Shown in pieces: positions 2,999 to 52,338 of a stretch of 54,127 nt of DNA. The notes beneath the pieces are model-generated. The model did not search any database, was not told where the DNA came from, and worked only from the letters and a program-made list of their open reading frames with translations. Positions within the stretch are counted from its first letter, which is position 1. Every line of letters begins with the position of its first letter. A program made the position numbers and the translations under genes. The stretch spans positions 98,516 through 152,642 of IMG/VR virus record IMGVR_UViG_3300028327_000833. The stretch is one strand, 5' to 3'. Origin of the DNA: a virus. Lineage: Duplodnaviria; Heunggongvirae; Uroviricota; Caudoviricetes.

Positions 2999-3050
2999 GG
3001 CTGACGCTCCTTCTTATGTTATTTAAACGCTTCGCGTAATTTCGATAAAC

Positions 3051-3082
3051 TAAAGATAGCGAAAACCGCGGAAATTAACAAA
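3051..3082 (-). promoter_or_regulatory. Late-gene promoter motif TTTG-N20-TATCTTTA
   Basis: Same motif and spacing upstream of several virion genes (see findings). Confidence 0.7.
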
Positions 3083-3137
3083 CGCCGCGTATGCGGAGGT
3101 TTTCGCGCGAAACCGCGCGAGCCTCGGACGGCGCCCG

Positions 3138-3761
3138 TCAGCCGTCCGCATTCAGACCGTCGTGCGTGTTGCCGTAAACGGACGGGTTCGTAAACCGCAG
3201 AATGGTCAGCATCGTAGCTATGTTTTTGTCGATTGTATTCACCTTCTCCTGTAAATTTTCAAATTTTTGCTTCCCTATAGTGTCTTTTTCGATGTTGCCC
3301 ACGCGCACGTTCAACTCCGACAGCGTCTTTTCCAGCGCCCTCGTGTAATCCTTATGCTCGGTGAGGTGGTTTTCGTGCGCCTTGAACAGGGTGTCGGTGG
3401 TCTTTTTCATGTCTTCGATGTGGACGTCCTGCTTGTCCGCGATTTTTCGGTACTCCGTCCGCATGTCAGCCAGTTGCGCGTCTCTGTCTTTTTTACGCAG
3501 TTCCGTATCTTTCTTCTCGATTTCGGCCTGTTTCGCGATCAACTCCCTGCTTTTTTCGTGAAGTTTGGTCATTCTCACGTAAATCAGAAAACCTATGACG
3601 AGGACGACCAACGCCACAATGCTCAGCGGCGTCCACGGCGTTCGGGCGATCATATCGAACGCGCCGCGAGCGGCGTCGGGCACTTTAGGCGGAACATCTT
3701 GGGCGAAAACTTGAAAAACGGACAGCGTTACCACGGCTAAGGGATTTAGCGCGAGTTTCAT
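3138..3761 (-). CDS. Membrane-anchored coiled-coil protein (possible lysis/holin-type)
   Basis: ATG 3761 with SD GGAG; N-terminal signal-like segment, second hydrophobic helix LSIVALVVLVIGFLIYV, long coiled coil; own late-type promoter. Function not established. Confidence 0.45.
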   Translation of the reverse strand: MKLALNPLAVVTLSVFQVFAQDVPPKVPDAARGAFDMIARTPWTPLSIVALVVLVIGFLIYVRMTKLHEKSRELIAKQAEIEKKDTELRKKDRDAQLADMRTEYRKIADKQDVHIEDMKKTTDTLFKAHENHLTEHKDYTRALEKTLSELNVRVGNIEKDTIGKQKFENLQEKVNTIDKNIATMLTILRFTNPSVYGNTHDGLNADG

Positions 3762-3802
3762 ATCGTATCTCTCCGTAGCGATAAGGTGTACTCCCCCATC
3801 GA

Positions 3803-3834
3803 TAAAGATAACGAAAACTGCGGAATTTAACAAA
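3803..3834 (-). promoter_or_regulatory. Late-gene promoter motif TTTG-N20-TATCTTTA
   Basis: Exact repeat of motif architecture at 3051-3082. Confidence 0.7.
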
Positions 3835-3926
3835 CCGGAAAACTTACGGAATTTAAAGCGGACAAAAAAAACGCCCTTGTTTTTGAGCGTTGTCGAGAGG
3901 CTTGGGAGTTGTCGCTTCTTTAACCG

Positions 3927-4658
3927 CTATACCGCGCGGGATTCGGCGATTTTAAAATACTTTTCTTCTTTTTCTATGCCGATAAAATTACGCCCGGCGT
4001 TCATAGCCGCCGCGCACGCCGTTCCGCAGCCCATGCAGCAGTCCAATACGGTTTCGTTTTCATTGGTGTAAGTTCTTATCAGCCACTCGCACATCTCCAC
4101 GCTTTTCTCCGTAGGGTGCCTCGTCGCCGCGGGATGCGGTTTCGAACGGGATATTATCGACACAGGGTATTTCTGCCGCGCGCCTTTCCTGACGTCGGGC
4201 GCGACCCCGAAGTCTCCGTAATTCTGATTTACCGCCGCTTTGTTTTTGTAAGCCGTGCCGCGGCCGTGCAGCGGCTTCCCGAGCGTAAATTGCGGATTGT
4301 ACGTCGGGGCGTTCCTATAGAATACCGCGATTTGCTCGTGCACGCGCAACGGCATCCGTTTGGCGTTCAGAAAGCCCGACGACAAAACCTTGTCCCAAAT
4401 CAGGTCGTACCGGAAATTCTGACGGTTGCTGTTCACCAAATCCACGTAAAACAGCCCCTGCGCGAATAGAGCGGCCGCTCCGTTCGGTTTCAGTATCCGA
4501 TTGAACCGCGCCCATAAGCCGGGCAGCGGAATCGGGATGTCTTCTTTGTTGGCGGTCACGCCGTAAGGCGGATCGGTCAGAATGAAATCGACGGTTACGC
4601 CTTCTTCGATCAGCGAGTCCATGGCTTCGAAGCAGTCGCCGAGAATGAGTCTGTTCAT
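3927..4658 (-). CDS. DNA amino-methyltransferase (beta class)
   Basis: Motif IV DPPY precedes HPTEKSV and motif I LDCCMGCGT...FIGIE. Confidence 0.9.
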   Translation of the reverse strand: MNRLILGDCFEAMDSLIEEGVTVDFILTDPPYGVTANKEDIPIPLPGLWARFNRILKPNGAAALFAQGLFYVDLVNSNRQNFRYDLIWDKVLSSGFLNAKRMPLRVHEQIAVFYRNAPTYNPQFTLGKPLHGRGTAYKNKAAVNQNYGDFGVAPDVRKGARQKYPVSIISRSKPHPAATRHPTEKSVEMCEWLIRTYTNENETVLDCCMGCGTACAAAMNAGRNFIGIEKEEKYFKIAESRAV

Positions 4659-4699
4659 AATAGGTTTCCGGGTTCGACGGAGACGGCGGGGCCGCCCTA

Positions 4700-4778
4700 T
4701 ACTACAGTACGCTTTCGCGCAGCTATGTTTTTTTTTTACGTTTCAATAAATTTCAAATCCCGCAAACGTACTGTAGTA
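4700..4778. promoter_or_regulatory. Divergent pair of CGTACTGTAGTA motifs (early/middle promoter candidate)
   Basis: Minus copy 4700-4711 faces the methylase, plus copy 4767-4778 abuts the SD of 4792; further copies 7401-7412 and 11828-11839. Confidence 0.6.
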
Positions 4779-4791
4779 GGAGGCTGCGGCG

Positions 4792-5679
4792 ATGGCGAAC
4801 AGATATTGCGAAAGCCCGATCGGAAAAAAATTCGGCAGACTTACGGTCGCCGAACGGTACGGCGCGCGGAAAGACGGACTCGGCATCTATTACATCTGCG
4901 TATGCGACTGCGGCAAGACGAAAATCGCGCTCGGCACGAAACTGCGGACGGGCGCGATCCGTTCATGCGGATGCGCCAAAGGAAGACCGGCGGTGCATAA
5001 AGAGGGATCCGTATATAACGGCAAGCGCCTGATCGGGTGCGAAAACGGCGTGTACACGATGCGGTGCGAACTTTGCGGGAAAACGTCGCGGATTAGAAAT
5101 TCGCCAAAAAACGCGCCCGCGTGCGTTTGCAGAAAAGCGCTGAAAACTTACAACGCGCTGTCCGACGACGACGCCGCGCGGATCGAAAACTTGCTGCTGC
5201 AGGGCGGCAATATGTCTGAAGTCGCGAATATGACGGGCGCGAGTTACCACACGATCCGCCGTTACATAAAAGAGCGCGGTTTGCCGTACAGCCCCAAACA
5301 CAGAATGCCGCCGGCCGTGACGGCGGAAGAGTTGGCGCGGCAAGGTTTGAGACTGTCCGACATCGCCGCGCGGTACGGCGTCAGCATCGGCGCGGTGTCA
5401 AGATTTTTGAAAAGGCACGGAATAAAATACCGCCCTTCGGACTGCCGCCCGGGAAGGCCGAAAAAATATCCGGACGTCGTTATAGGGCGCAAATTCGGCA
5501 TGTTGAGAGTATTGGGTTTGGAGCGGATCGGGACGGGCGGTTCAAGGACGGCCGTCTTAAGATGCGAATGCGACTGCGGCAATCTGACTTCCGTTAAAGC
5601 CTATGCGTTGCTTTACGGAGGCAAGACGCATTGCGGATGCCGCCGCAAAAACAAAAAGAAAGAGAGGGCGCATGACTAA
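4792..5679 (+). CDS. DNA-binding protein with two CxCDCG...CGC zinc modules and HTH motifs (homing-endonuclease-associated type)
   Basis: GKKFGRLTV...CVCDCG...SCGC and GRKFGMLRV...CECDCG...HCGC flank two HTH-like segments (MSEVANMTGASYHTIRRY; LSDIAARYGVSIGAVSRFL). Confidence 0.65.
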   Translation: MANRYCESPIGKKFGRLTVAERYGARKDGLGIYYICVCDCGKTKIALGTKLRTGAIRSCGCAKGRPAVHKEGSVYNGKRLIGCENGVYTMRCELCGKTSRIRNSPKNAPACVCRKALKTYNALSDDDAARIENLLLQGGNMSEVANMTGASYHTIRRYIKERGLPYSPKHRMPPAVTAEELARQGLRLSDIAARYGVSIGAVSRFLKRHGIKYRPSDCRPGRPKKYPDVVIGRKFGMLRVLGLERIGTGGSRTAVLRCECDCGNLTSVKAYALLYGGKTHCGCRRKNKKKERAHD

Positions 5680-6034
5680 GAAAAAAGCCGCGGAGCCGGC
5701 TTCGCCGCCGAGCGCGAAGACCGAAACCGCCGAACCGCAGGTTCGCGTAAATCGGAAAAACCTTGCAAGGATTAACTGGCTGGTCGAACAGTCTCGTAAA
5801 ACCGACATGCTTCTCCACGAAAGACTTAACCTCGAATCTTTCGGAGGCGGGGAACGGGAAGAGGCGTACGAAGTTTGTGCGCGTATCCTAACCGGCAATC
5901 TTTACAACCCTTGTTCGATACAGCTTCCGAAGCAAGTTTTAGAAAGCGCGCTCTCGGAATACCTGATAAGCGTCGAGCGCGAACTTTGCGAATTAGGCGT
6001 AAAGCCGGCGACCGGGATCAATTCAGGGTCTTAA
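5672..6034 (+). CDS. Hypothetical protein
   Basis: ATG 5672 overlaps previous gene end; co-oriented. Confidence 0.6.
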   Translation: MTKKKAAEPASPPSAKTETAEPQVRVNRKNLARINWLVEQSRKTDMLLHERLNLESFGGGEREEAYEVCARILTGNLYNPCSIQLPKQVLESALSEYLISVERELCELGVKPATGINSGS

Positions 6035-6154
6035 ATTCTATTCAAATGCATCCGCAAGCCGAAGTAACGGCTTGTAAAGCGGGAATTAAACGTCAAATCG
6101 AACGGCCTGATCAGAATTGATAAGGATTTAGTAGGTTTGAGCAAGTTTTAAGGA

Positions 6155-6523
6155 ATGGCAGTGGAACATATAGAAAAATACGTCGAAATGATTGACGATT
6201 GCGAGCATGAAAAGGAATTCCATCAAATAATCGTCATGGCTATTCAGGATCGATGGCGGGCGGACTTTCCCAGCTACGTCGTCCGCAGCGCCGCCAAAGA
6301 CCGCAAAGCGTACGAAACCGCGCTAATCGGGCCTGGTAAGTTCATATCTCACATCCTGAACGCCGTGGACAGGACTGACTTCACAAGAGGCGGTTATTAC
6401 ATAGAAAACTATCACAAACTCACCAAAGGCGTAGATACCGCCGAAGAGTGCAAACGGCTGATCCACGACATCCTGGCTTGTCCGGATTTGCGGATATGGC
6501 TAATCGAGACGATCGGAGGATAG
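6155..6523 (+). CDS. Hypothetical protein
   Basis: ORF track, ATG with AAGG upstream. Confidence 0.65.
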   Translation: MAVEHIEKYVEMIDDCEHEKEFHQIIVMAIQDRWRADFPSYVVRSAAKDRKAYETALIGPGKFISHILNAVDRTDFTRGGYYIENYHKLTKGVDTAEECKRLIHDILACPDLRIWLIETIGG

Positions 6524-6652
6524 GCAATTATGGACGGAGATACGCCGTGTTGCGAGTGTGTTACGCGGACAGAGTACCGTTGCAGATTCAACTGGTACAG
6601 CTATTGTTTCTGAGCCCTTGTTGCGGTTGAAAAATAAAATATATCTAATTAA

Positions 6653-24066: not shown

Positions 24067-24355
24067 GACGGCGGGAACGGCCGGAGGCTTCGCGGCGGCG
24101 GGGCCTCCGGAATATTTGACTTTATCGGAGGCGGACGGCTATTTTAACTTAAACGCGGATTCGGCTAAGGCGCCGAATCCTATAAAAGAGAGGCCGCCGT
24201 TCGACGGCCTCCCCGCGCTGTAACGGTACTCAACGTCGCGCGGTTTGCGCGATATAGACAAGATAATATTTCGCGGGGCGGAAGCGCAGGTTTTTTTTAT
24301 TTTTTTTTGATTTAGGCTTGACAAATCGCTTACACCGTTGAACTCGCCCTAATCC

Positions 24356-24916
24356 TCATGCATGAAACAGCTCCTCTGGAACCCGTTCCCACTCTGACGG
24401 AGGCGAATTAATAGACTCTGTAATGGATTCCATCATTCCTGGAATCGAGTTCAAGTAGTCCGTGTCATTATCATAGTCAATGAGCTGAGTTTTGAAGTAA
24501 GTTTTCATCTCGTCGCAAGCGATCTCGGAAGGATTTCTTGCGCAAGCCTTTACCCGAGGAACATCCTCATGTGTGAGATCTCGGAGTTCCCGTGCAGAAA
24601 ACTGTCCGTAATTCATGTGCACCAAATCTAAAACTTCGTTAGTTCCGTCATTAAAAACGCCATGCGCGTCTGTATCGCAAGGTATCGGAATTGCGTCGGA
24701 ACCGCACGACTTATATTTGTGATAGAGCGGAACGCACACAGGGCCGTGCTCCCAAGCCTCTATAGGCTCGTTGAATAATGGCGAGTTCTCCATTGCCAGA
24801 TGAAAACCTTGTGCATAATAGACGAGTTTCTGCAGTTTTAAATTAGACATCAGATCCCCAGCGTCAGGATCCTGCCGCTTGAGGAAGTAATTGGCGACAT
24901 CAAAGCATGTCTTCAT
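24356..24916 (-). CDS. socA: Panacea/SocA-family antitoxin (DUF4065)
   Basis: MSNLKLQKLVYYAQG, LFNEPIEAWEHGPVC, SARELRDLTH. Confidence 0.9.
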   Translation of the reverse strand: MKTCFDVANYFLKRQDPDAGDLMSNLKLQKLVYYAQGFHLAMENSPLFNEPIEAWEHGPVCVPLYHKYKSCGSDAIPIPCDTDAHGVFNDGTNEVLDLVHMNYGQFSARELRDLTHEDVPRVKACARNPSEIACDEMKTYFKTQLIDYDNDTDYLNSIPGMMESITESINSPPSEWERVPEELFHA

Positions 24917-25062: not shown

Positions 25063-25272
25063 TCAAAAACCGCGTTTAGATGTCAATTTGGGCGTTTTGA
25101 CCGTCTTTTGGGGGCGTCCGGGGCCGGGCCGTCGGGCGCATTCGAGAGTGACGGCATCCGTAACGGCGCCGTCTTTCGACATGTTCCGCGCCTGACCTGC
25201 GTCGTCCTCGTCGGTCTCGGCATTCTCATACAGCTTCAGAATCCGTTGTACAAGCGCGTCCAACTCGCCCAT
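25063..25272 (-). CDS. Short protein with shared M[DG]ELDAxVxRILKLYE leader
   Basis: SD GAGGGG; leader shared with 41833-42393 and 43341-43691; C-terminus runs into a dispersed repeat. Confidence 0.6.
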   Translation of the reverse strand: MGELDALVQRILKLYENAETDEDDAGQARNMSKDGAVTDAVTLECARRPGPGRPQKTVKTPKLTSKRGF

Positions 25273-39356: not shown

Positions 39357-40636
39357 ATAGTTACCTCTTTTGTTATCAAATCTTGCAAGCGTAATAACCT
39401 GCATGTTTTTTAACAAAATCGGTTTTGAACCCGGAACCATATTTTCCGAGGGAGAAACGGCCAAGGGTGTTCAAGGCGCCGACCATATCGGCTTTGCCTG
39501 CATAGCCACAAGACAGACACCTGAACGCCTCTTGACTTAACCGGTTCCCCTTCTCGACGTGACCGCAGACCGGACAAGTAGTAGAGTTGTAGAAAGCAGG
39601 TACCCGCCGTAAGGAAACACCGTTTTCTTCAGCAAGCATTTCTACCCTGCTGTCCAACAACCCGCTTGTCCAGCCGTCGAGAACTGAACGCATACTTTTA
39701 GTTAAGCGTCCTTTAACTTTGCTGTTCCTTTTAATATCCTTGTTATTTTCAATACAGATTAATTTAGTTTCTTTAAAAGGCAACTCTTTACATGTTTTAG
39801 AAATGTAATATTTAATCTCTTTTTTACATTTCTTCCACGACCTTGAGTTGCGTTTTTTCCGTTTCAGTTTCTGTAAAAGCGGCTTTATCCGGTCGCCGTA
39901 AACAACACCCTCGTCAGAGGTTAAAAGGTTCGTGGCTCCGGGGTCTAACCCTATAATATCACCTTCCGTTTTCTTAGGGACGTCAGCTTCAAAAGAAAAC
40001 TGGATATATTTATCTGTTAAAATAACGGAACTTGAAAGTTTGCCTTTAGAGTTCCATTTTTCAAAACAACGGTTCTTTTTCAAAGGTATCGCTATTTTAA
40101 CCGCCCGTTGTCTGCTATCGAAACATTTTAACTCTACTAGAAGATCGAAGTCTTCTAAATCAGGGTTAAGGTTTACAGATACCAGCTGACTCGACAAAAC
40201 GGCTTTTGTTTTGCAATGTTTAGGTTTCGTATACGGCTGTTTTAACTCTTTGCAACTTTTAATCTGGCCGTCTACCATACCGTAGGTTTCAGCTAAAACG
40301 ACTTGTTTAGCTCTGGCCGTCAGCCACGTTTCCGGTACTTTGTAATTTTTATGGACATCGAACTTAGAGTCGCCGTCTTCTATACGGTTTTTTATACCGT
40401 CTATAGCGGAAGACGCGACAGCGTCATACTCAGACAGCAAGTCTTTTATACGGCCGGACTTGCTTCCGGTTATCCACTTCGAGAAGTGGCATTTGACGCT
40501 TCTGTTGAACTTCATTTTTCAAGTTCCTTTAAGAGAGTCTAAAAATTTTAGCCTGACTATATAGTTTCATAACTCAAAGCTAACATGTTTGACAATAAAA
40601 AACAATATTTGATAATAAAACCTATAAATGTATTAA
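39357..40636 (-). mobile_element. TnpA-less tnpB element, copy 1 (1280 bp)
   Basis: Boundaries from identity with copy 2: follows ATGTAT, ends GGTAACTAT (3-nt TAT ambiguity); left-end hairpin ATGTATT-T-AATACAT. Confidence 0.85.
39376..40515 (-). CDS. tnpB: TnpB RNA-guided nuclease
   Basis: RuvC I GLDPG, RuvC II CIENN, Zn finger CPVCG...CLSCG, RuvC III ADMVGALN. Confidence 0.95.
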   Translation of the reverse strand: MKFNRSVKCHFSKWITGSKSGRIKDLLSEYDAVASSAIDGIKNRIEDGDSKFDVHKNYKVPETWLTARAKQVVLAETYGMVDGQIKSCKELKQPYTKPKHCKTKAVLSSQLVSVNLNPDLEDFDLLVELKCFDSRQRAVKIAIPLKKNRCFEKWNSKGKLSSSVILTDKYIQFSFEADVPKKTEGDIIGLDPGATNLLTSDEGVVYGDRIKPLLQKLKRKKRNSRSWKKCKKEIKYYISKTCKELPFKETKLICIENNKDIKRNSKVKGRLTKSMRSVLDGWTSGLLDSRVEMLAEENGVSLRRVPAFYNSTTCPVCGHVEKGNRLSQEAFRCLSCGYAGKADMVGALNTLGRFSLGKYGSGFKTDFVKKHAGYYACKI

Positions 40637-40666
40637 ATACATAGGCTTTGTAGTCGTCGAGCTCTA

Positions 40667-41088: not shown

Positions 41089-41245
41089 TGTGCCTATAAC
41101 CTAAAGATAGCTAAATTTAGGCAAAAAACCAACTCCAAGAAGCGGGTTTAATCCATAAAACCCTCAAATTCTACTCGAAAAAGCATTTTTTGCAGATTTT
41201 TCGTTTTTTTTTGTTTTAGGTCTTGACAAAAAACTTACGCTATTT

Positions 41246-41383
41246 AACTCGCCCTAATCCTCGCCCGAATATGCCCCGAATTCCTCGAAAAACCGCGTTT
41301 CGAGGCCGTTCGAGGGGGTCAGGGGCCGGGCCGTCGGGCGCGTCCGAGGGCGACGGCGGTCTCCGGGGTGACTTGCGTATATT
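41246..41383 (+). repeat. Dispersed GC-rich intergenic repeat, copy A
   Basis: Near-identical to 42488-42633; pieces at 24341-24357, 25065-25139 and 22604-22698. Confidence 0.9.
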
Positions 41384-42487: not shown

Positions 42488-42633
42488 AACTCGCCCTAAT
42501 CCTCGCCCGAATATGCCCCGAATTCCTCGAAAAACCGCGTTTCGAGGCAGTCCGAGGGGTTCGGGGGCGGGCCGTCGGGCGCATCCGAGGGCGACGGCGG
42601 TCGCGGCGGTCTCCGGGGTGACTGTATTATATT
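42488..42633 (+). repeat. Dispersed GC-rich intergenic repeat, copy B
   Basis: Near-identical to 41246-41383; bracketed by imperfect inverted repeat TATAATATAGTCAC (42413-42426) / GTGACTGTATTATA. Confidence 0.9.
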
Positions 42634-43691: not shown

Positions 43692-43772
43692 AACGGCCTC
43701 GCGTTTATGAGATTTTATAAAATTTGGCAAGAAAACCGTTCCTTAAAACTCACTCAAACCTACTAAATCCTT

Positions 43773-43922
43773 ACAGTCGGCGCTTTAAACGTCCTTGGCC
43801 GCTTCTCCCTCGGAAAATATGGTTCCGGGTTCAAAACCGATTTTGTTAAAAAACATGCAGGTTATTACGCCTGCAAGATTTGATAACAAAATCGGTAACT
43901 ATCACCGTTAGTCTTTTACCAA
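43773..43922 (+). ncRNA. Stand-alone omega-RNA-like copy of the tnpB 3' end / right end, plus putative guide (43903-43922)
   Basis: About 130 bp homologous to the last part of both tnpB elements, opposite strand; 13-bp stem 43836-43848/43884-43896 and TGCAGG/CCTGCA inner stem; no tnpB ORF or left end. Confidence 0.7.
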
Positions 43923-46679
43923 CCGAACGTTGAACATATTGTCTTTTGACGTATTAAGGTTAGACGTATTCATGCCCGGATTGAACCTTATCATATAACC
44001 ATCTGTCGTTGGCGCACTCGGATATGGTGTAGACGTCCAGAATTTTGCATACGCGCCAATACTCGAATAGAAGTTATTCGATGACGGAGGAGTAACAGAA
44101 GTCGTGTCGCCTCCCGGTAAGACACAAAACCCATATCTATCTATTCCGTTATTGTTATTTGACCACCCGATGGTAGACATAAGGGATTTTGATACTTGCG
44201 TATTCCCGTTGGCTAACGTATCTCCATCTCCTATTATAGCTACTCGAAGATTAAACCACTCTGCATTAGTGGCTACGTGCCAGCCCGGAATACAAGCCTG
44301 TAGTGCTCCATCAAACGTGTATAACAGTCCATAATGACCGTAGTTTATCCGACTCCTGTCATACCACACTGCCTTTGTAGTGTCGTTTAGGTTATACTCC
44401 AAATTCTGCGCTAACCAAATGTTCCCGTCAGGCATACGTACTGTTCTGTATACCTTATTATCACGCGAGTCTTTTATGTACCCGAATATATCGCCCGTTA
44501 TTGACGGAGAGCCACCACCTCCAGACTGCGCAGGTGCGACGAACAGGCCGCCATCACTTCCTGTAGTTATTTGGTTATTCGCGTCGGTTGATACGGATGT
44601 CGCGCCCTCTATCCTTGCGAGGGTCTCGGTGACTATGCCACCGGAGTAGTTCATTCGCATTACCCTATATGTGCCGCTGGTCGCCACCGCAACTAATACT
44701 CTGTTGCTGTAGGCGACACTTAGCCAACTATTATTTTCCGTCGCCGCGACCGCTGTCCACGTTTGCCCGTTATCGGTGGAACGCATTACTCTGTTTGCGC
44801 CGGTACTCGCCACCGCTACAAATACCCCATTGCCGTAGGTGACACCGAACCACTGATTATTTGCAGCAGCCGCGACCGCTGTCCACGTTTGCCCATTGTC
44901 AACGGAGCGCATTACCCGATTTGTACCGTCATACGACACCGCGACGAATGTCCCGTTGCCGTAGGTGACACTGTACCAACTATTATTTGCAGCAGCCGCG
45001 ACCGCTGTCCACGTTTGCCCATTGTCAACGGAGCGCATTACCTGATTTGTACCGTCACCCGCCACCGCTACGAATGTCCCGTTGCCGTAGGTGACACTGT
45101 ACCAACTATTATTTTCCGTCGCCGCGACCGCTGTCCACGTTTGCCCATTGTTAACGGAGCGCATTACCCGATTTGTACCGTCATTCGACACCGCTACAAA
45201 CACCCCATTGCCGTAGGCGACATTGCGCCACTGATTATTTCCAGTCGCCGCAACCGCTGCCCACGTCGCCCCGTTATCGGTGGAACGCATTACCCGATTT
45301 GTACCGCTATTCGCCACCGCTACAAACACCCCATTGCCGTAGGCGACACTGCGCCAACCATTATTTTCAGCCGCCGTAACAGCCGTCCATGTTTGCCCGT
45401 TGTCAACGGAACGCATTACCCTATTTGTGCCGTCGGTCGCTACCGCGACAAACACCCCATTGCCGTAGGCGACACTGACCCACTGATTATTTTCAGCCGC
45501 CGCGACCGCCGTGTTGTTTAACACTATCTCCTCCACCCTCTTGACCAACGCCAAATACCCATTTGTCGTCATTGCGGTCGAAAGTATCAAGTCTCCAACT
45601 TGAACTTCCCGCCCTGCCGGAGGTGTAATTTCTACCATATCTTTCTCGCCGCCGATGGCAGTATTCAGCGCGGTGGGCGTAGTGTAGACGGAATACCCGT
45701 CCCTGCCGTCTTCGACATGCGTTTGGTCAGGCAGCGTATACTGGCCGCACACGTCAAGTTTAGTGTATCCGTAGTAAGTATTCGCACTGCCGTGCCACAG
45801 CATAAAGTATATCGTATAGGCTTTAAACATAACATCGCCGGGATTGACTTCGCCGTCGTTAATCATATCCAGCACGCGCTTGCCGTTTATCCAGAAGTGG
45901 GCGTTTGAGCTAATCGTCATCTCGACTTCATTAGTCTCGAAGAGGACGTCGCAATCAAACTGTACCGGAACTATCAGAGGCCGTCCCACTATCGGCGGCA
46001 GAAACTCCGCTTGGTTATTGTTGCCCGCTTTCACAAGCCCTTCGGAGACATATAAACGATCCCACGGCAGTGAATTTATCCACGAGTGCGGATAATACCT
46101 CGAAGCTACTGGACGCCATTGCCCGTCGGACGTCAGAAACGCCGAACCGTCCGCGCGATTCATCTGCGTATCCGCCTTAACGCCCGTATCCTCGCCGTTG
46201 ATTATCAGCCTGCGCTCGTACAACTCACTGGGCGCGTGGTCGTCAAGACTGAGTGAGGCTTCGGGCGAGGCTGACCCCCAAAACCAAATTAAAGCCATCT
46301 GAACGTCTTCCCACACTTCAACCGCGTTCTCGCCGTCGCCCTCGACCCGCCGCACCGCCGTTACCGCGACGAACCCGTCGCCGTAACGGCTCGGATCGAC
46401 GCCCGTGATCTCGCCGTACTCGTTGTAGCTGGCCCCCCACTCGACGGCTTTTTCGCGGGTGTAGAACCAATCTTTGGGAGACACCTTGCCCCACAAGTCC
46501 CCGTTGCCGATGTCGAAAGTGCGGTTCTCCGTTACCGCGGGAGCCCACATGACTTTGACGTCTACGGCCGCCGCCGAACCGCCGCCGTTCTGACCGACGA
46601 GGGCGTCGACGGCGTCTTTATTGTACCACTCTTGCTCTAATTTACGGCTTTTGATTAAACCAGGAACCGGTGCGTTCAT
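43908..46679 (-). CDS. Tail fibre / receptor-binding protein: seven 42-aa beta-propeller repeats and C-terminal FISUMP (Fib_succ_major) domain
   Basis: Repeats WxSVxYGNGxFVAV...RVMRSxDNGQTW; DSRDNKVYRTV...WLAQNL...YGLLY...GWHV...FWTST...NVRLVKD; ATG 46679 with SD GAGG. Confidence 0.85.
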   Translation of the reverse strand: MNAPVPGLIKSRKLEQEWYNKDAVDALVGQNGGGSAAAVDVKVMWAPAVTENRTFDIGNGDLWGKVSPKDWFYTREKAVEWGASYNEYGEITGVDPSRYGDGFVAVTAVRRVEGDGENAVEVWEDVQMALIWFWGSASPEASLSLDDHAPSELYERRLIINGEDTGVKADTQMNRADGSAFLTSDGQWRPVASRYYPHSWINSLPWDRLYVSEGLVKAGNNNQAEFLPPIVGRPLIVPVQFDCDVLFETNEVEMTISSNAHFWINGKRVLDMINDGEVNPGDVMFKAYTIYFMLWHGSANTYYGYTKLDVCGQYTLPDQTHVEDGRDGYSVYTTPTALNTAIGGEKDMVEITPPAGREVQVGDLILSTAMTTNGYLALVKRVEEIVLNNTAVAAAENNQWVSVAYGNGVFVAVATDGTNRVMRSVDNGQTWTAVTAAENNGWRSVAYGNGVFVAVANSGTNRVMRSTDNGATWAAVAATGNNQWRNVAYGNGVFVAVSNDGTNRVMRSVNNGQTWTAVAATENNSWYSVTYGNGTFVAVAGDGTNQVMRSVDNGQTWTAVAAAANNSWYSVTYGNGTFVAVSYDGTNRVMRSVDNGQTWTAVAAAANNQWFGVTYGNGVFVAVASTGANRVMRSTDNGQTWTAVAATENNSWLSVAYSNRVLVAVATSGTYRVMRMNYSGGIVTETLARIEGATSVSTDANNQITTGSDGGLFVAPAQSGGGGSPSITGDIFGYIKDSRDNKVYRTVRMPDGNIWLAQNLEYNLNDTTKAVWYDRSRINYGHYGLLYTFDGALQACIPGWHVATNAEWFNLRVAIIGDGDTLANGNTQVSKSLMSTIGWSNNNNGIDRYGFCVLPGGDTTSVTPPSSNNFYSSIGAYAKFWTSTPYPSAPTTDGYMIRFNPGMNTSNLNTSKDNMFNVRLVKD
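44655..45515 (-). repeat. Intragenic 126-bp tandem repeats (7 units)
   Basis: GTCCAC anchors at 44755, 44881, 45007 (period 126). Confidence 0.9.
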
Positions 46680-46728
46680 AAGCGCCTCTCTTACGGAAAA
46701 AGTTTCAGAAGTCAATCAAGTCTAAAGT

Positions 46729-48908: not shown

Positions 48909-49658
48909 TCAATATTCGTCTCTCATGTCCGACTGCATATCTATAAGTCTGTCCAATCCAGGGTTAGTCGTGACGCCGCGCCACAATTTAGCGAGATGCT
49001 TGCATAAGGCGGGCGTTTCGCGGCCGTTTCGAATCCTGCCGGGGCCCGGATCCGCGCGCGTCGTCGCGGCGTATTCCACCGACCCGGCAATGCGGCGCTG
49101 GCTTACGTTAAAATTTCTAAGAGCTTTCACGGCATGGTTCGGATACGCCAAGTTATATTTAAACGCTTCGCAGTCGCAGTAAACCTTGCCTTTCATATCC
49201 GGCCGCCAGCCGTCCTTTACCGTCGTTCTGTACACGGCGATTTCCGGGCGATGCTCGGTGCCCTTCGCGGTATTCACCACACGGCCGGTTATAACCAGCC
49301 CCGTTTTGTCGTCGACCAGCTCCGCCTTAACCCCCTCAAGCCGCAAAACTTCCAAATTCGACACGGGAACCTGTCTGCCGTGCGCAAACACGGGCTTCCC
49401 GTTTTTGTCTTTTTTCCAAGCGTTAGGAAAAACCCGCCGAAAAGACAAATCCATGTCGGAGACGTCGGTTCCGATGGAATCGACGCGGCGTTCCCGCTTC
49501 GACCTGGCTATCGACGGGGCTACGGAGGATTCGGCGACCGCAGACGGCTCAGGCGCGGCAGACCGCGCGACGCCGGCATAGCTCTGCCCGTACAGCCCGG
49601 ATCGCGCGGAAACGTCGGGCGTATAGTTACCTCTTTTATTATCAAACATTGCAGGCAT
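48909..49658 (-). CDS. SWIM-type zinc-finger protein; start codon lies inside tnpB element copy 2
   Basis: VYCDCEAFKY...N...ALCKHL; GGAGG-CTATT-ATG at 49668-49656. Confidence 0.75.
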   Translation of the reverse strand: MPAMFDNKRGNYTPDVSARSGLYGQSYAGVARSAAPEPSAVAESSVAPSIARSKRERRVDSIGTDVSDMDLSFRRVFPNAWKKDKNGKPVFAHGRQVPVSNLEVLRLEGVKAELVDDKTGLVITGRVVNTAKGTEHRPEIAVYRTTVKDGWRPDMKGKVYCDCEAFKYNLAYPNHAVKALRNFNVSQRRIAGSVEYAATTRADPGPGRIRNGRETPALCKHLAKLWRGVTTNPGLDRLIDMQSDMRDEY

Positions 49659-50902
49659 AATAGCCTCCATGTTTTTTAACAAAATCGGTTTTGAACCCGG
49701 AACCATATTTTCCGAGGGAGAAACGACCAAGGGTATTCAAGGCGCCGACCGTATCGGCTTTGTCTGCATAGTCACAAGACAGACACCTGAACGCCTCTTG
49801 ACTTAACCGGTTCCCCTTCTCGACGTGACCACAGACCGGACAAGTAGTGGAGTTGTGGAAAGCAGGCACCCGTCTGAGGGAAACACCGTTTTCCTCCGAG
49901 AGCATTTCTACCCTGCTGTCCAGCAACCCGCTTGTCCAGCCGTCGAGAACTGAACGCATATTTTTAGTTAAGCGTCCTTTAACTTTGCTGTTCCGTTTAA
50001 TATCCTTGTTATTTTCAATACAGATTAATTTAGTCTCCTTAAAAGGCAACTCTTTACATGTTTTAGAGACGTAATATTTAATTTCTTTTTTACACTTTTT
50101 CCACGACCTTGAGTTGCGTTTTTTCCGTTTCAGTTTCTGTAAAAGCGGCTTTATCCGGTCGCCGTAAATAACGCCCTCGTCTGAAGTTAAAAGGTTCGTG
50201 GCTCCGGGATCTAAACCTATAATACTGCCTTCCGTTTTCTTAGGGACGTCAGCTTCAAAAGAAAACTGGATGTATTTGTCTGTTAAAATAACGGAACTTG
50301 AAAGTTTGCCTTTAGAGTTCCACTTTTCAAAACAGCGGTTCTTTTTCAAGGGTATCGCTATTTTAACCGCTTTCCTTCTGCTATCGAAACATCTTAACTC
50401 AACTAAAAGATCGAACGCTTCTAATTGAGGGTTAAGGTTTACAGATGCTAAATTGCAAGACAAAACGGCTTTTGTTTTGCAATGTTTAGGTTTCGTATAC
50501 GGCTGTTTTAACTCTTTGCAACTTTTAATCTGGCCGTCTACCATACCATAGGTTTCGGCTAGAGCGACTTGTTTCGCTCTGGCCGTCAGCCACGTTTCCG
50601 GTACTTTGTAATTTTTAAAGACGTCGAATTTAGAGTCGCCGTCTTCTATACGGCTTTTTACAACGTCAATAGCTGAAGTCGCTACGGCGTCATATTCAGA
50701 AAGCAAGTCTTTTATACGGTCAGACTTGCTTCCGGTTATCCACTTCGAGAAGTGGCATTTGACGCTTCTGTTGAACTTCATTTTTCAAGTTCCTTTAAGA
50801 GAGTCTAAAAATTTTAGCCTGACTGTATAGTTTCATAACTCAAAGCTAACACATTTGATAACAAAAAACAATATTTGATAATAAAACCTATAAATGCATT
50901 AA
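49623..50902 (-). mobile_element. TnpA-less tnpB element, copy 2 (1280 bp)
   Basis: Same length and ends as copy 1. Confidence 0.85.
49642..50781 (-). CDS. tnpB: TnpB RNA-guided nuclease, copy 2
   Basis: GLDPG, CIENN, CPVCG...CLSCD, ADTVGALN; roughly 93-94% aa identity to copy 1 by manual comparison. Confidence 0.95.
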   Translation of the reverse strand: MKFNRSVKCHFSKWITGSKSDRIKDLLSEYDAVATSAIDVVKSRIEDGDSKFDVFKNYKVPETWLTARAKQVALAETYGMVDGQIKSCKELKQPYTKPKHCKTKAVLSCNLASVNLNPQLEAFDLLVELRCFDSRRKAVKIAIPLKKNRCFEKWNSKGKLSSSVILTDKYIQFSFEADVPKKTEGSIIGLDPGATNLLTSDEGVIYGDRIKPLLQKLKRKKRNSRSWKKCKKEIKYYVSKTCKELPFKETKLICIENNKDIKRNSKVKGRLTKNMRSVLDGWTSGLLDSRVEMLSEENGVSLRRVPAFHNSTTCPVCGHVEKGNRLSQEAFRCLSCDYADKADTVGALNTLGRFSLGKYGSGFKTDFVKKHGGYYACNV

Positions 50903-50907
50903 ATACA

Positions 50908-52338
50908 TTATTGGCCTCGATAGCCTTGCATGAACGACTGCATTATGCCGCGGTTGCCGTAACCGCCGCCTGACTGCTGATTCGCTTTTTTAAGCATCTT
51001 CAGCCTGTATGCCGGATTGGCCATCTTCGTCATGTTTTTGTACATGGCGCGGTTGTAATTCAGTTCGTCGCGCTCAAGTCCGCGCTGTCCTTTTTCCATC
51101 GCGCGGGCGTGTCTGTTCGCCGCGCTGTGCTTGTCTAAAAATCCGGCGAAACCCGTTTTTATCGCGCCGCTCGCGATGCCTTGCACTCTCTGCTGATGCG
51201 CGGCGTCGGCGGCTTGCTGTTTGGCGGCCTTAATGTCGCGCCCCTGCTGCACTTTCCTGAATCTGTCGGGATTCCGCGCCTGCATCAGCGTATCCTGCGC
51301 CTGTTGCCGCTGGTTCTTCATATCGGCGGTCTGATTGGCGATCTCGGTGTCGCGCTGCATCGCGTTCATCGCGTACTGCTGTTTGTTCTGCGCCGTCCAC
51401 AGCTTGTTGTACGCCCGCGCGCCAGCCAGCTTCTGCTTCGCGGCCGCGGCTCCGGCGTAATTCGCCCGTTTATCGTTCTCGCGGTTTAATTCGACGCCTG
51501 CTTGATTAGTCCTCGTGATATTGCGGGCGTCCTGGTTGACCAAAGTTTTGGCGGCCATGCCGATGCCGCGTCCGATGCCGCCTCCCGCAGCCCTGCGCCC
51601 TTGATTGAAAGCGTGGAACGCCGTCCGCAAGCCCTCGTCCGCTCCGCCCTCGAACAGCTGCACGCCGGCGTAATGGCGGTTTTTCACCGCCAAAGCGTCA
51701 GCTCTGCGTGAATCTCTTTCGGCTTTTCTATGAGTCCGCCGGATCGCGTCTTCGGCGCGCGCGTTGTCGCGGGCTTCTTTGGCCGCCGTCTCGCGTTCCA
51801 GTCGATCCGCCTTATTTTGCTGATGCCGCGCGTACGCTTTGTAAATCGGTTTTCCGACCGCGACGCCCGCTTTACAAAAGACTTTATAAGCGGCGTCTCC
51901 GGCCTTTTTCTTTAACTCGGGCGCTTTTTTACGGATGTACTCCCGCGCCTTTTCGTCGCCCTTTATGATTGTGTCCTGAAGTTTTCCGAAACCGTAAAAC
52001 GCTTTGCGTCCGAGACTTTTTAAACCGCCGTGCTTTTCGGGACGGCTTTCAGGTTCGGGCTCCGGTCGATTTTTATACTGTTTCTGCAGCTCTACGGCTT
52101 TCCCGCGCATATACCGCGCAATTTTAGCGCTCGCGCGACTCTTTTCCCCGTCTTTCCAAGCCTGACGCTTGTCTTTGCGCCCTTGCGCGACTTCCGTGCG
52201 CCACGCGTCGCGGGACATTTTGCGTCCGCTGGGCAGAATTACAGAGTCCCCGCGGTAGACCGGAGCGCCTCCGAAGTCGACGCCGCGTTCGTATACCGCG
52301 CAGCCGTACTGCTCGTTGAATTCGCTGATAAGAGACAT
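50908..52338 (-). CDS. Large basic Ala/Gln/Lys/Arg-rich protein, putative internal virion protein
   Basis: Low-complexity helical composition, AVYE and LFEG motifs; function inferred only. Confidence 0.5.
   Translation of the reverse strand: MSLISEFNEQYGCAVYERGVDFGGAPVYRGDSVILPSGRKMSRDAWRTEVAQGRKDKRQAWKDGEKSRASAKIARYMRGKAVELQKQYKNRPEPEPESRPEKHGGLKSLGRKAFYGFGKLQDTIIKGDEKAREYIRKKAPELKKKAGDAAYKVFCKAGVAVGKPIYKAYARHQQNKADRLERETAAKEARDNARAEDAIRRTHRKAERDSRRADALAVKNRHYAGVQLFEGGADEGLRTAFHAFNQGRRAAGGGIGRGIGMAAKTLVNQDARNITRTNQAGVELNRENDKRANYAGAAAAKQKLAGARAYNKLWTAQNKQQYAMNAMQRDTEIANQTADMKNQRQQAQDTLMQARNPDRFRKVQQGRDIKAAKQQAADAAHQQRVQGIASGAIKTGFAGFLDKHSAANRHARAMEKGQRGLERDELNYNRAMYKNMTKMANPAYRLKMLKKANQQSGGGYGNRGIMQSFMQGYRGQ

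Follow-up and report, generated by a model that had tools for sequence, protein, structure and literature searches.

Organization of the interrupted locus

The window analysed here, a stretch of 54,127 nucleotides, covers positions 98,516 to 152,642 of the Caudoviricetes record IMGVR_UViG_3300028327_000833 in IMG/VR, which itself comprises 152,642 bp and is 74% complete. Coordinates are window positions unless marked genome. In this window, a phage gene for a protein carrying a CxC...CxH motif is separated from its predicted native start by a TnpB-encoding transposable element assigned to the IS607 family, referred to as copy 2, and the right end of this element carries a ribosome-binding site (RBS) and a start codon in frame with the gene. 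All genes at the locus lie on the minus strand (Table 1). Copy 2 is 92-94% identical to the other five copies in the record and contains an intact tnpB (Pfam Cas12f1-like TNB, 1.3e-10; PHROG transposase, 2e-22). It is preceded by a phage gene whose 476-aa product gave no match in Pfam and PHROG searches.

The left junction of copy 2 reads ..GAGGCCAATAATG/TAT.. and the right junction ..AACTAT/ACGCCCGAC, with a slash marking the border of the element. As the preliminary description had proposed, excision of copy 2 at these junctions gives TAATG-TAT-ACG (CAATAATGTATACG), in which the TAA stop of the 476-aa gene overlaps an in-frame ATG with its own GAGG located 6 nt upstream, in the order GAGG-CCAATA-ATG/TAT; the predicted joint across the site after removal of the element is CAATAATGTATACGCCC. 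The insertion core and target of copy 2 would be GTAT (50906-50903), made up by the start ATG together with codon 2, TAT. Since TAT comprises three bases, the frame argument developed below is independent of the side to which this triplet is assigned. The tail Y-L-[MI]-H-L-stop of the six-codon open reading frame (ORF) now headed by the native signals also ends the severed ORFs at two further copies, 39063 and 42421, and at all three copies alike the left end closes phase-0 upstream ORFs at most five codons in.

Table 1 Features of the copy 2 locus and further element sequences in the window (SD, Shine-Dalgarno sequence)
Feature	Position	Strand	Details
Upstream phage gene, 476 aa	50908..52338	minus	ORF list and sequence; TAA stop 50910-50908
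Native start of the interrupted gene	50903..50918	minus	GAGG 50918-50915, ATG 50908-50906, TAT 50905-50903
Mini-ORF, six codons (M Y L M H L stop)	50888..50908	minus	headed by native SD and ATG, closed by TAG of the left end
Copy 2, tnpB-only IS607-family derivative	49623..50905	minus	1283 bp counting both TAT
Left-end subterminal direct repeats, candidate TnpA binding motifs	50831..50881	minus	TTATCAAA twice, TTATGAAA once (motif scan)
tnpB of copy 2, 379 aa, intact	49642..50781	minus	stop TGA 49644-49642
Terminal hairpin of the right end, presumed omega-RNA 3' stem	49629..49689	minus	folds, consensus of seven sequences
Element-borne RBS and start	49656..49668	minus	GGAGG 49668-49664, 5-nt spacer, ATG 49658-49656
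Second in-frame ATG (CAATGTTT)	49647..49649	minus	2 nt before the tnpB stop
Fused gene, 249 aa	48909..49658	minus	11-12 element-encoded residues and the 237-residue CxC...CxH protein
Predicted guide of the copy 2 omega-RNA	49603..49622	minus	first 20 nt of the right flank, from the known TnpB/omega-RNA layout (PMC13565253)
Copy 1, tnpB-only, intergenic	39357..40639	minus	GCAGG..ACG right end
Solo right-end remnant, 131 nt	43772..43902	plus	GCAGG..ACG form, opposite orientation

A start signal in the right end of the element

The presence of a Shine-Dalgarno (SD) sequence and an ATG in the right end of copy 2, in frame with the downstream gene, was borne out by both the sequence and the ORF. 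Both GGAGG and ATG fall in the terminal 46 nt of the element and overlap tnpB codons (H-G-G-Y-Y-A); they are in the +1 frame relative to the 3' end of this gene. The outward frame, MPAMFDNKRGNY, stays open through the tip (..GGTAACTAT) into TPDVSARS... of the interrupted gene, giving 249 codons in all, of which the native part spans 48909-49622, and the identical 249-aa product is predicted on six independent contigs. Termite-gut samples containing this phage include JGI 3300002119 and 3300002308 as well as ENA ERZ27257306, ERZ27257309 and ERZ27257311. Two right-end subterminal repeats were found by motif scan, TTTGTTAA (49683-49676) and TTTGATAA (49646-49639), the latter and last of which encodes the FDN residues of the tag added by the element. 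The second in-frame ATG arises from an AGA to ATG change in the outward frame and is restricted to copy 2 and a copy in a second phage (locus L009, see below). At the homologous place, copy 1 indeed reads GCAGGTTATTACG (GCAGG..ACG), with neither SD nor ATG; the four differences between copies 1 and 2 at this place are clustered within 13 nt, compared to an overall divergence of about 7%.

GGAGG-N-ATG is the normal start signal of this phage because, outside the elements, 68 of the 82 GGAGG-N4-8-ATG sites in the genome (83%) precede an ORF of 50 aa or more, and plausible small genes follow several of the remaining sites. Between the element tip and position 49454, the interrupted gene contains no in-frame ATG, GTG or TTG. 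The start codon at 49454 has no SD, and its use would delete the SKRERRV..IG block, which is invariant in the interrupted protein and its five close homologs. As this sole internal start drops the block, a full-length product must start within the element, and the sequence supports the element end as the only SD-led in-frame start by which the block would be retained.

The interrupted gene and its native start

Five homologs of the CxC...CxH protein, 56-58% identical, were obtained in a search of 5.8 billion proteins. Four of them originate from element-free loci and begin with M-[APV]-D-[IT]-L-G behind their own SD. These starts align with the predicted native M-Y-T-P-D within plus or minus two codons (alignment A2), which supports the earlier proposal that the insertion separated the gene from its native start. 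The relatives were also expected to display the empty-site sequence itself; here, a similar start position was found, but the literal string TAATGTATACG is absent from them because their upstream context differs. Searches for an empty allele among viral contigs revealed no relatives of the CxC...CxH or the 476-aa protein, and every contig with the exact flank proteins either includes the element or ends within it. Metagenome contigs gave no match to TnpB patterns or to a 20-mer from the right-end region, the right-end pattern was unmatched in viral contigs, and a 21-mer of the right-end region was unmatched in genome contigs.

Neither the interrupted protein nor its five close homologs match a Pfam or PHROG family. 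The preliminary description had named the gene after the SWIM zinc finger (PF04434); since no Pfam match to it was obtained for any of these six proteins, 'SWIM-like' can serve as a motif label only, and one distant relative stays below the cut-off against PF04434 (E = 0.089). C161-D-C163 and C219-K-H221 are invariant in alignment A2 and lie about 55 residues apart. In SWIM domains, the spacing from CxC to CxH is usually much shorter. The AlphaFold model of the interrupted protein, with a mean predicted local distance difference test score (pLDDT) of 43, is too poor for a fold search, and its low confidence over residues 1-69 is no proof of disorder.

Two right-end haplotypes among the element copies

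The record holds six near-full copies of the element, 92-95% identical to one another, as well as a right-end remnant and a left-end piece, the latter being the left end of a tnpA-bearing copy (genome 63804-65574). The right-end tip of this element lineage reads ..GTAACTAT. According to the preliminary description, copy 2 alone carries SD and ATG. This did not hold, as the GGAGGCTAYTATG form (GGAGG..ATG) is present in three of the seven right ends, namely in copy 2, copy 42421 and copy 39063, and additionally in the L009 copy of the second phage. The GCAGGTTATTACG form (GCAGG..ACG) is found in copy 1, copy 8347, the tnpA-bearing copy and the solo remnant. An intact tnpB is present in each of the six copies, with a pairwise synonymous divergence (dS) of 0.19-0.30 and a ratio of nonsynonymous to synonymous divergence (dN/dS) of 0.09-0.16, values that point to old copies maintained under selection. 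The patterns of variable sites are strongly reticulate across the six copies, which therefore recombine.

The three copies without the signal do not need a restart, two of them being intergenic and one lying 7 codons before a stop. At copy 39063, the same SD and ATG lead in frame into a 284-codon ORF. Upstream of this copy, a 30-codon ORF headed by GGAGG-N5-GTG (L003:1421-1513, genome 38983-39075) extends into the left end, where it terminates with ..AK-YLIHL as its tail. Copy 39063 is thus best read as residing in a second gene, cut after about codon 25 and restarted in frame; since a homolog search of this gene returned none besides itself, its native N-terminus is placed solely from the upstream GGAGG-N5-GTG. 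The outward ORF at copy 42421 comprises 17 codons (L002, genome 43663-43720), and its TGA overlaps the next ATG (ATATGA), which re-creates the stop-start overlap once held by the truncated upstream 41-codon gene.

The GTG start of a baseplate-like gene follows copy 1 at a distance of 51 nt. The solo remnant, probably the relic of a deleted copy, is located 5 nt beyond the stop of a 935-aa gene (43908-46715, minus strand).

The element at the same codon in a second phage and more distant relatives

The fifth homolog of the interrupted protein (P0003, locus L009, another metagenome), which is 56% identical, begins with MRAMFDNKIGNY-QPEAS. In the corresponding DNA, the same element ends at the homologous codon and carries GGAGG together with both ATGs. 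DNA identity is 85% for the element (L009:1-414 vs 49623-50036), compared to 59% for the flanking gene, and dS between the two phages amounts to about 0.55 in the 3' part of tnpB vs about 1.9 in the flanking gene, the latter value being saturated and the guide-RNA region being constrained. The lower dS of the element argues, not decisively, against vertical co-descent of element and gene. Despite its position at the same codon in both phages, the element seems to postdate their split. The two phages would have seen either two entries at the same tolerated site or a later homogenisation.

In the closest outside relative (L029), TnpB is 62% identical, a separate Resolvase gene is present and the tip reads GAGTAACTAT. 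At the position of the signal, L029 has CCT GAC TAT TTT TGT, without SD and without ATG. Because this relative has neither motif, GGAGG is derived within the present lineage, but older than copy 2. A GTG/TAT in phase with a small ORF upstream also precedes the L029 element (300-400, 2100-2180); the GTAT core appears to be conserved in this branch. The right ends of TnpB relatives of about 50% identity from IMG/VR (L022-L028) terminate in another tip, TTTGAACGGT, and lack SD and ATG; hence, the start signal is not a general trait at this level of TnpB identity.

Structure of the right end and predicted translation of the fused gene

In agreement with the preliminary description, the SD and ATG region lies in a terminal hairpin, presumably the 3' stem of the omega-RNA, and this hairpin folds in every copy; in copy 2, the repeats TTTGTTAA and TTTGATAA flank it. 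The consensus fold of the structured 3' region from seven sequences contains only two compensated pairs. As the GCA to GGA change by which GGAGG is created breaks a C-G pair (G-G mismatch), the SD is no by-product of stem maintenance; the GGT to GGC change adds a pair. It had also been suggested that hairpin folding hides the SD. However, the unpaired probability over the region from SD to ATG is 0.39 in copy 2 vs 0.47 +/- 0.13 for 68 ordinary starts of the phage, 19 of which are lower, so accessibility is within the normal range and a strong masking of the SD by the hairpin is not supported. By analogy to IStrons (PMC10690162), binding of TnpB to the right-end RNA could block the start.

The tnpB stop is located 11 nt past the first and 2 nt past the second ATG, and no terminator-like site was found on the minus strand of the element. 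As the simplest mechanism, translation of the fused gene is probably coupled to that of tnpB.

Origin of the fused gene and alternative explanations

The anatomy of the locus, the reading frame, the sharing of the signal among copies and the position of the native start are directly visible. In the explanation that we favour, with a probability of roughly 60%, one right-end haplotype of the element is a portable start that makes its long-term residence in 5' gene ends possible. An IS607-family element would have multiplied in this phage from the termite gut, and its tnpB-only copy 2 would have landed on the GTAT at a start codon, thereby cutting the CxC...CxH gene from its own GAGG and from the TAATG overlap with the 476-aa gene. 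The terminal 46 nt of the element would then supply GGAGG, spacer and ATG, and MPAMFDNKRGN would replace the first Met of the protein. Coupling to tnpB translation would replace the lost coupling to the 476-aa gene. With the haplotype derived in the lineage and common to other copies and the second phage, insertions in the 5' parts of genes could survive. Initiation of ribosomes within the element, tnpB coupling and selection on the haplotype are what we infer from these sequences. A rescue of the host gene by the element, as put forward in the preliminary description, is plausible in the light of two more cases; an evolution of the signal by copy 2 is not supported.

Several observations weigh against this explanation. 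The exact empty site is absent from every relative and contig searched. Copy 42421 has the signal without a need for it, lying 5 codons before the stop of a small ORF. The link between the need for a restart and possession of the signal is 2/2, or 3/3 with L009, which is not significant in Fisher's test (P of about 0.2 and 0.1, respectively). Three of the four haplotype differences are synonymous in tnpB, and drift together with gene conversion could suffice to account for them. Furthermore, GGAG-N6-GTG may constitute an internal start of the L009 gene ahead of the conserved block, and the start region of copy 2 is more stably folded (-24.9 kcal/mol) than the average start (-15.5 +/- 5.1 kcal/mol).

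Among the alternatives, coincidence survives best, although it is unlikely. The SD-like run and the ATG would be by-products of tnpB codons, guide-RNA structure and TnpA-binding repeats, while the interrupted gene would be dispensable, silent or internally started. The location of the motif in a stable hairpin, its purposeless occurrence in copy 42421 and the lack of a known family for the interrupted gene agree with this explanation. All four gene-associated insertions are in phase xxG/TAT (chance of about 0.05), and this phase is anyway the commonest one of GTAT in the genes of this phage (204/438; 47%). On the other hand, the 237-codon native part is intact in both phages despite a dS of about 1.9 between them, and both severed genes of this genome as well as the L009 gene are in frame with an element ATG. 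Moreover, the same motif predicts real starts at 83% of the other sites, and the only internal start has no SD and removes the invariant block.

Less probable is an acquisition of SD and ATG by mutation of copy 2 after insertion, selected for rescue of the gene, as the preliminary description had it. GGAGG is derived relative to L029, the four differences from copy 1 are clustered, and copy 2 and L009 alone share the two-base change giving a second start beside the tnpB stop. Were this insertion the oldest one, transposition or gene conversion could have passed the signal on to the others; the copies are clearly recombinant. However, the haplotype is also present in copies 42421 and 39063 and in the second phage, and a tnpB-only copy cannot be the parent of a tnpA-bearing one. 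If the gene matters, the signal must have been present at insertion, because the severed gene would have been dead, without any start, until three to four changes had accumulated.

An assembly artefact, in which the 1.3-kb repeat misjoined the unrelated flanks of the 476-aa gene and the CxC...CxH gene, deserves hardly any weight: most short-read contigs do break inside the element and one contig (L018; ENA ERZ27257309, 59 kb, 3001-6571) joins the 476-aa gene and tnpB to the 296-aa protein of copy 39063, but six contigs of several samples contain the right junction with the copy-2-specific tip, five contigs contain the left one (four of these are shown), and the joined flanks form a perfect operon junction with SD, TAATG and correct frame. 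For the L018 contig itself, a chimeric assembly across the repeat and a genuine recombination between two copies are the two options.

A more far-reaching proposal, which we consider doubtful, is that the lineage evolved its portable translation start because it lowers the cost of insertion, as a translational counterpart of IStron splicing, with host-gene expression set by the level of TnpB. If the proposal is true, the same RNA could serve either as guide-RNA scaffold bound by TnpB or as RBS of the interrupted gene, and 5' gene ends would be open to colonisation by the element in a genome with almost no non-coding DNA. Coding sequence fills phage genomes almost completely, which leaves transposons few safe landing sites. 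Should an element end be able to provide a severed gene with a new RBS, a start codon and a short leader, this would explain the persistence of TnpB elements inside phage genes without an intron, and gene callers would be expected to annotate element-tagged proteins silently, three such products having been found here. The system would also afford a simple test bed for guide-RNA formation versus translation on one transcript. No description of a start supplied by the right end of a transposon was found in the literature searched.

Other repeats in the window

Further repeats are present in the window. At 44656-45585, the 935-aa gene contains a tandem array of six 126-nt (42-codon) units with 70-82% identity to the first unit. 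An intergenic block consisting of a T-run, TTGACAAA.. and AACTCGCCCTAATCCTC.. is repeated at 24292-24357, 41197-41329 and 42488-42571 and may represent a promoter or leader before small paralogous genes. Additionally, related 77-nt coding repeats occur at 25199, 42320 and 43618.

Relation to known mobile elements

An assignment of the element to the IS605 type, a reading with TnpA hairpins, had to be dropped, since no Y1 (HUH) TnpA (PF01797) is present in the 152-kb record (74% complete) and a serine-recombinase tnpA is found in a sibling copy. In this copy (genome 63804-65574), a 185-aa ORF matching Pfam Resolvase (4e-15) is placed between the left end and tnpB, overlapping the tnpB start. 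The element is accordingly classed with the IS607 family from its sequence, copy 2 itself being tnpB-only. Each of the six copies has TAT at its two ends, with G as the last base of the left flank and ..AACTAT as the right end. IS607 strand exchange takes place over a 2-bp core common to the ends and the target (PMC6188088); applied to the G/TAT junctions, this logic suggests a GTAT target of which one copy is left behind. In Rfam, no match at E <= 1 was obtained for 49400-51000, including RAGATH-18, and no intron family scored above chance.

With the IS607 family (types IS607 of H. pylori, IS1535, ISXfa1 and ISFba1), the element shares a serine-recombinase tnpA overlapping tnpB in the autonomous copy, an apparent lack of inverted repeats, a putative short core common to both ends, short subterminal repeats and an expected guide-RNA region at the tnpB 3' end and right end. 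It differs in its core and target, which would be GTAT here compared to GG or the G-rich AGGAG/GAGGG of IS607 (PMC6188088, PMC13565253), in the missing RAGATH-18 match and in the absence of tnpA from five of the six copies. Furthermore, SD, ATG and an open frame point outward from one right-end haplotype of the present element.

IStrons are IS607 or IS605 elements fused to group I introns, for which repair is achieved by splicing (PMC10690162). Like them, the present element would be a TnpB transposon that lowers the cost of its residence inside a gene, with the cost-lowering RNA segment overlapping the guide-RNA scaffold, so that the two uses may compete. In contrast to IStrons, repair would be translational, consisting of a restart and a tag, and no intron family was detected here.

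Several other insertion sequences (IS), such as IS10 with its pOUT, ISEcp1, ISAba1 and the Bacteroides IS1186 type, provide promoters or hybrid promoters upstream of an intact gene. In these as in the present case, the end of the element supplies signals driving a neighbouring gene; what copy 2 would contribute, however, is an RBS, a start codon and 11 codons for a gene whose own start had been removed.

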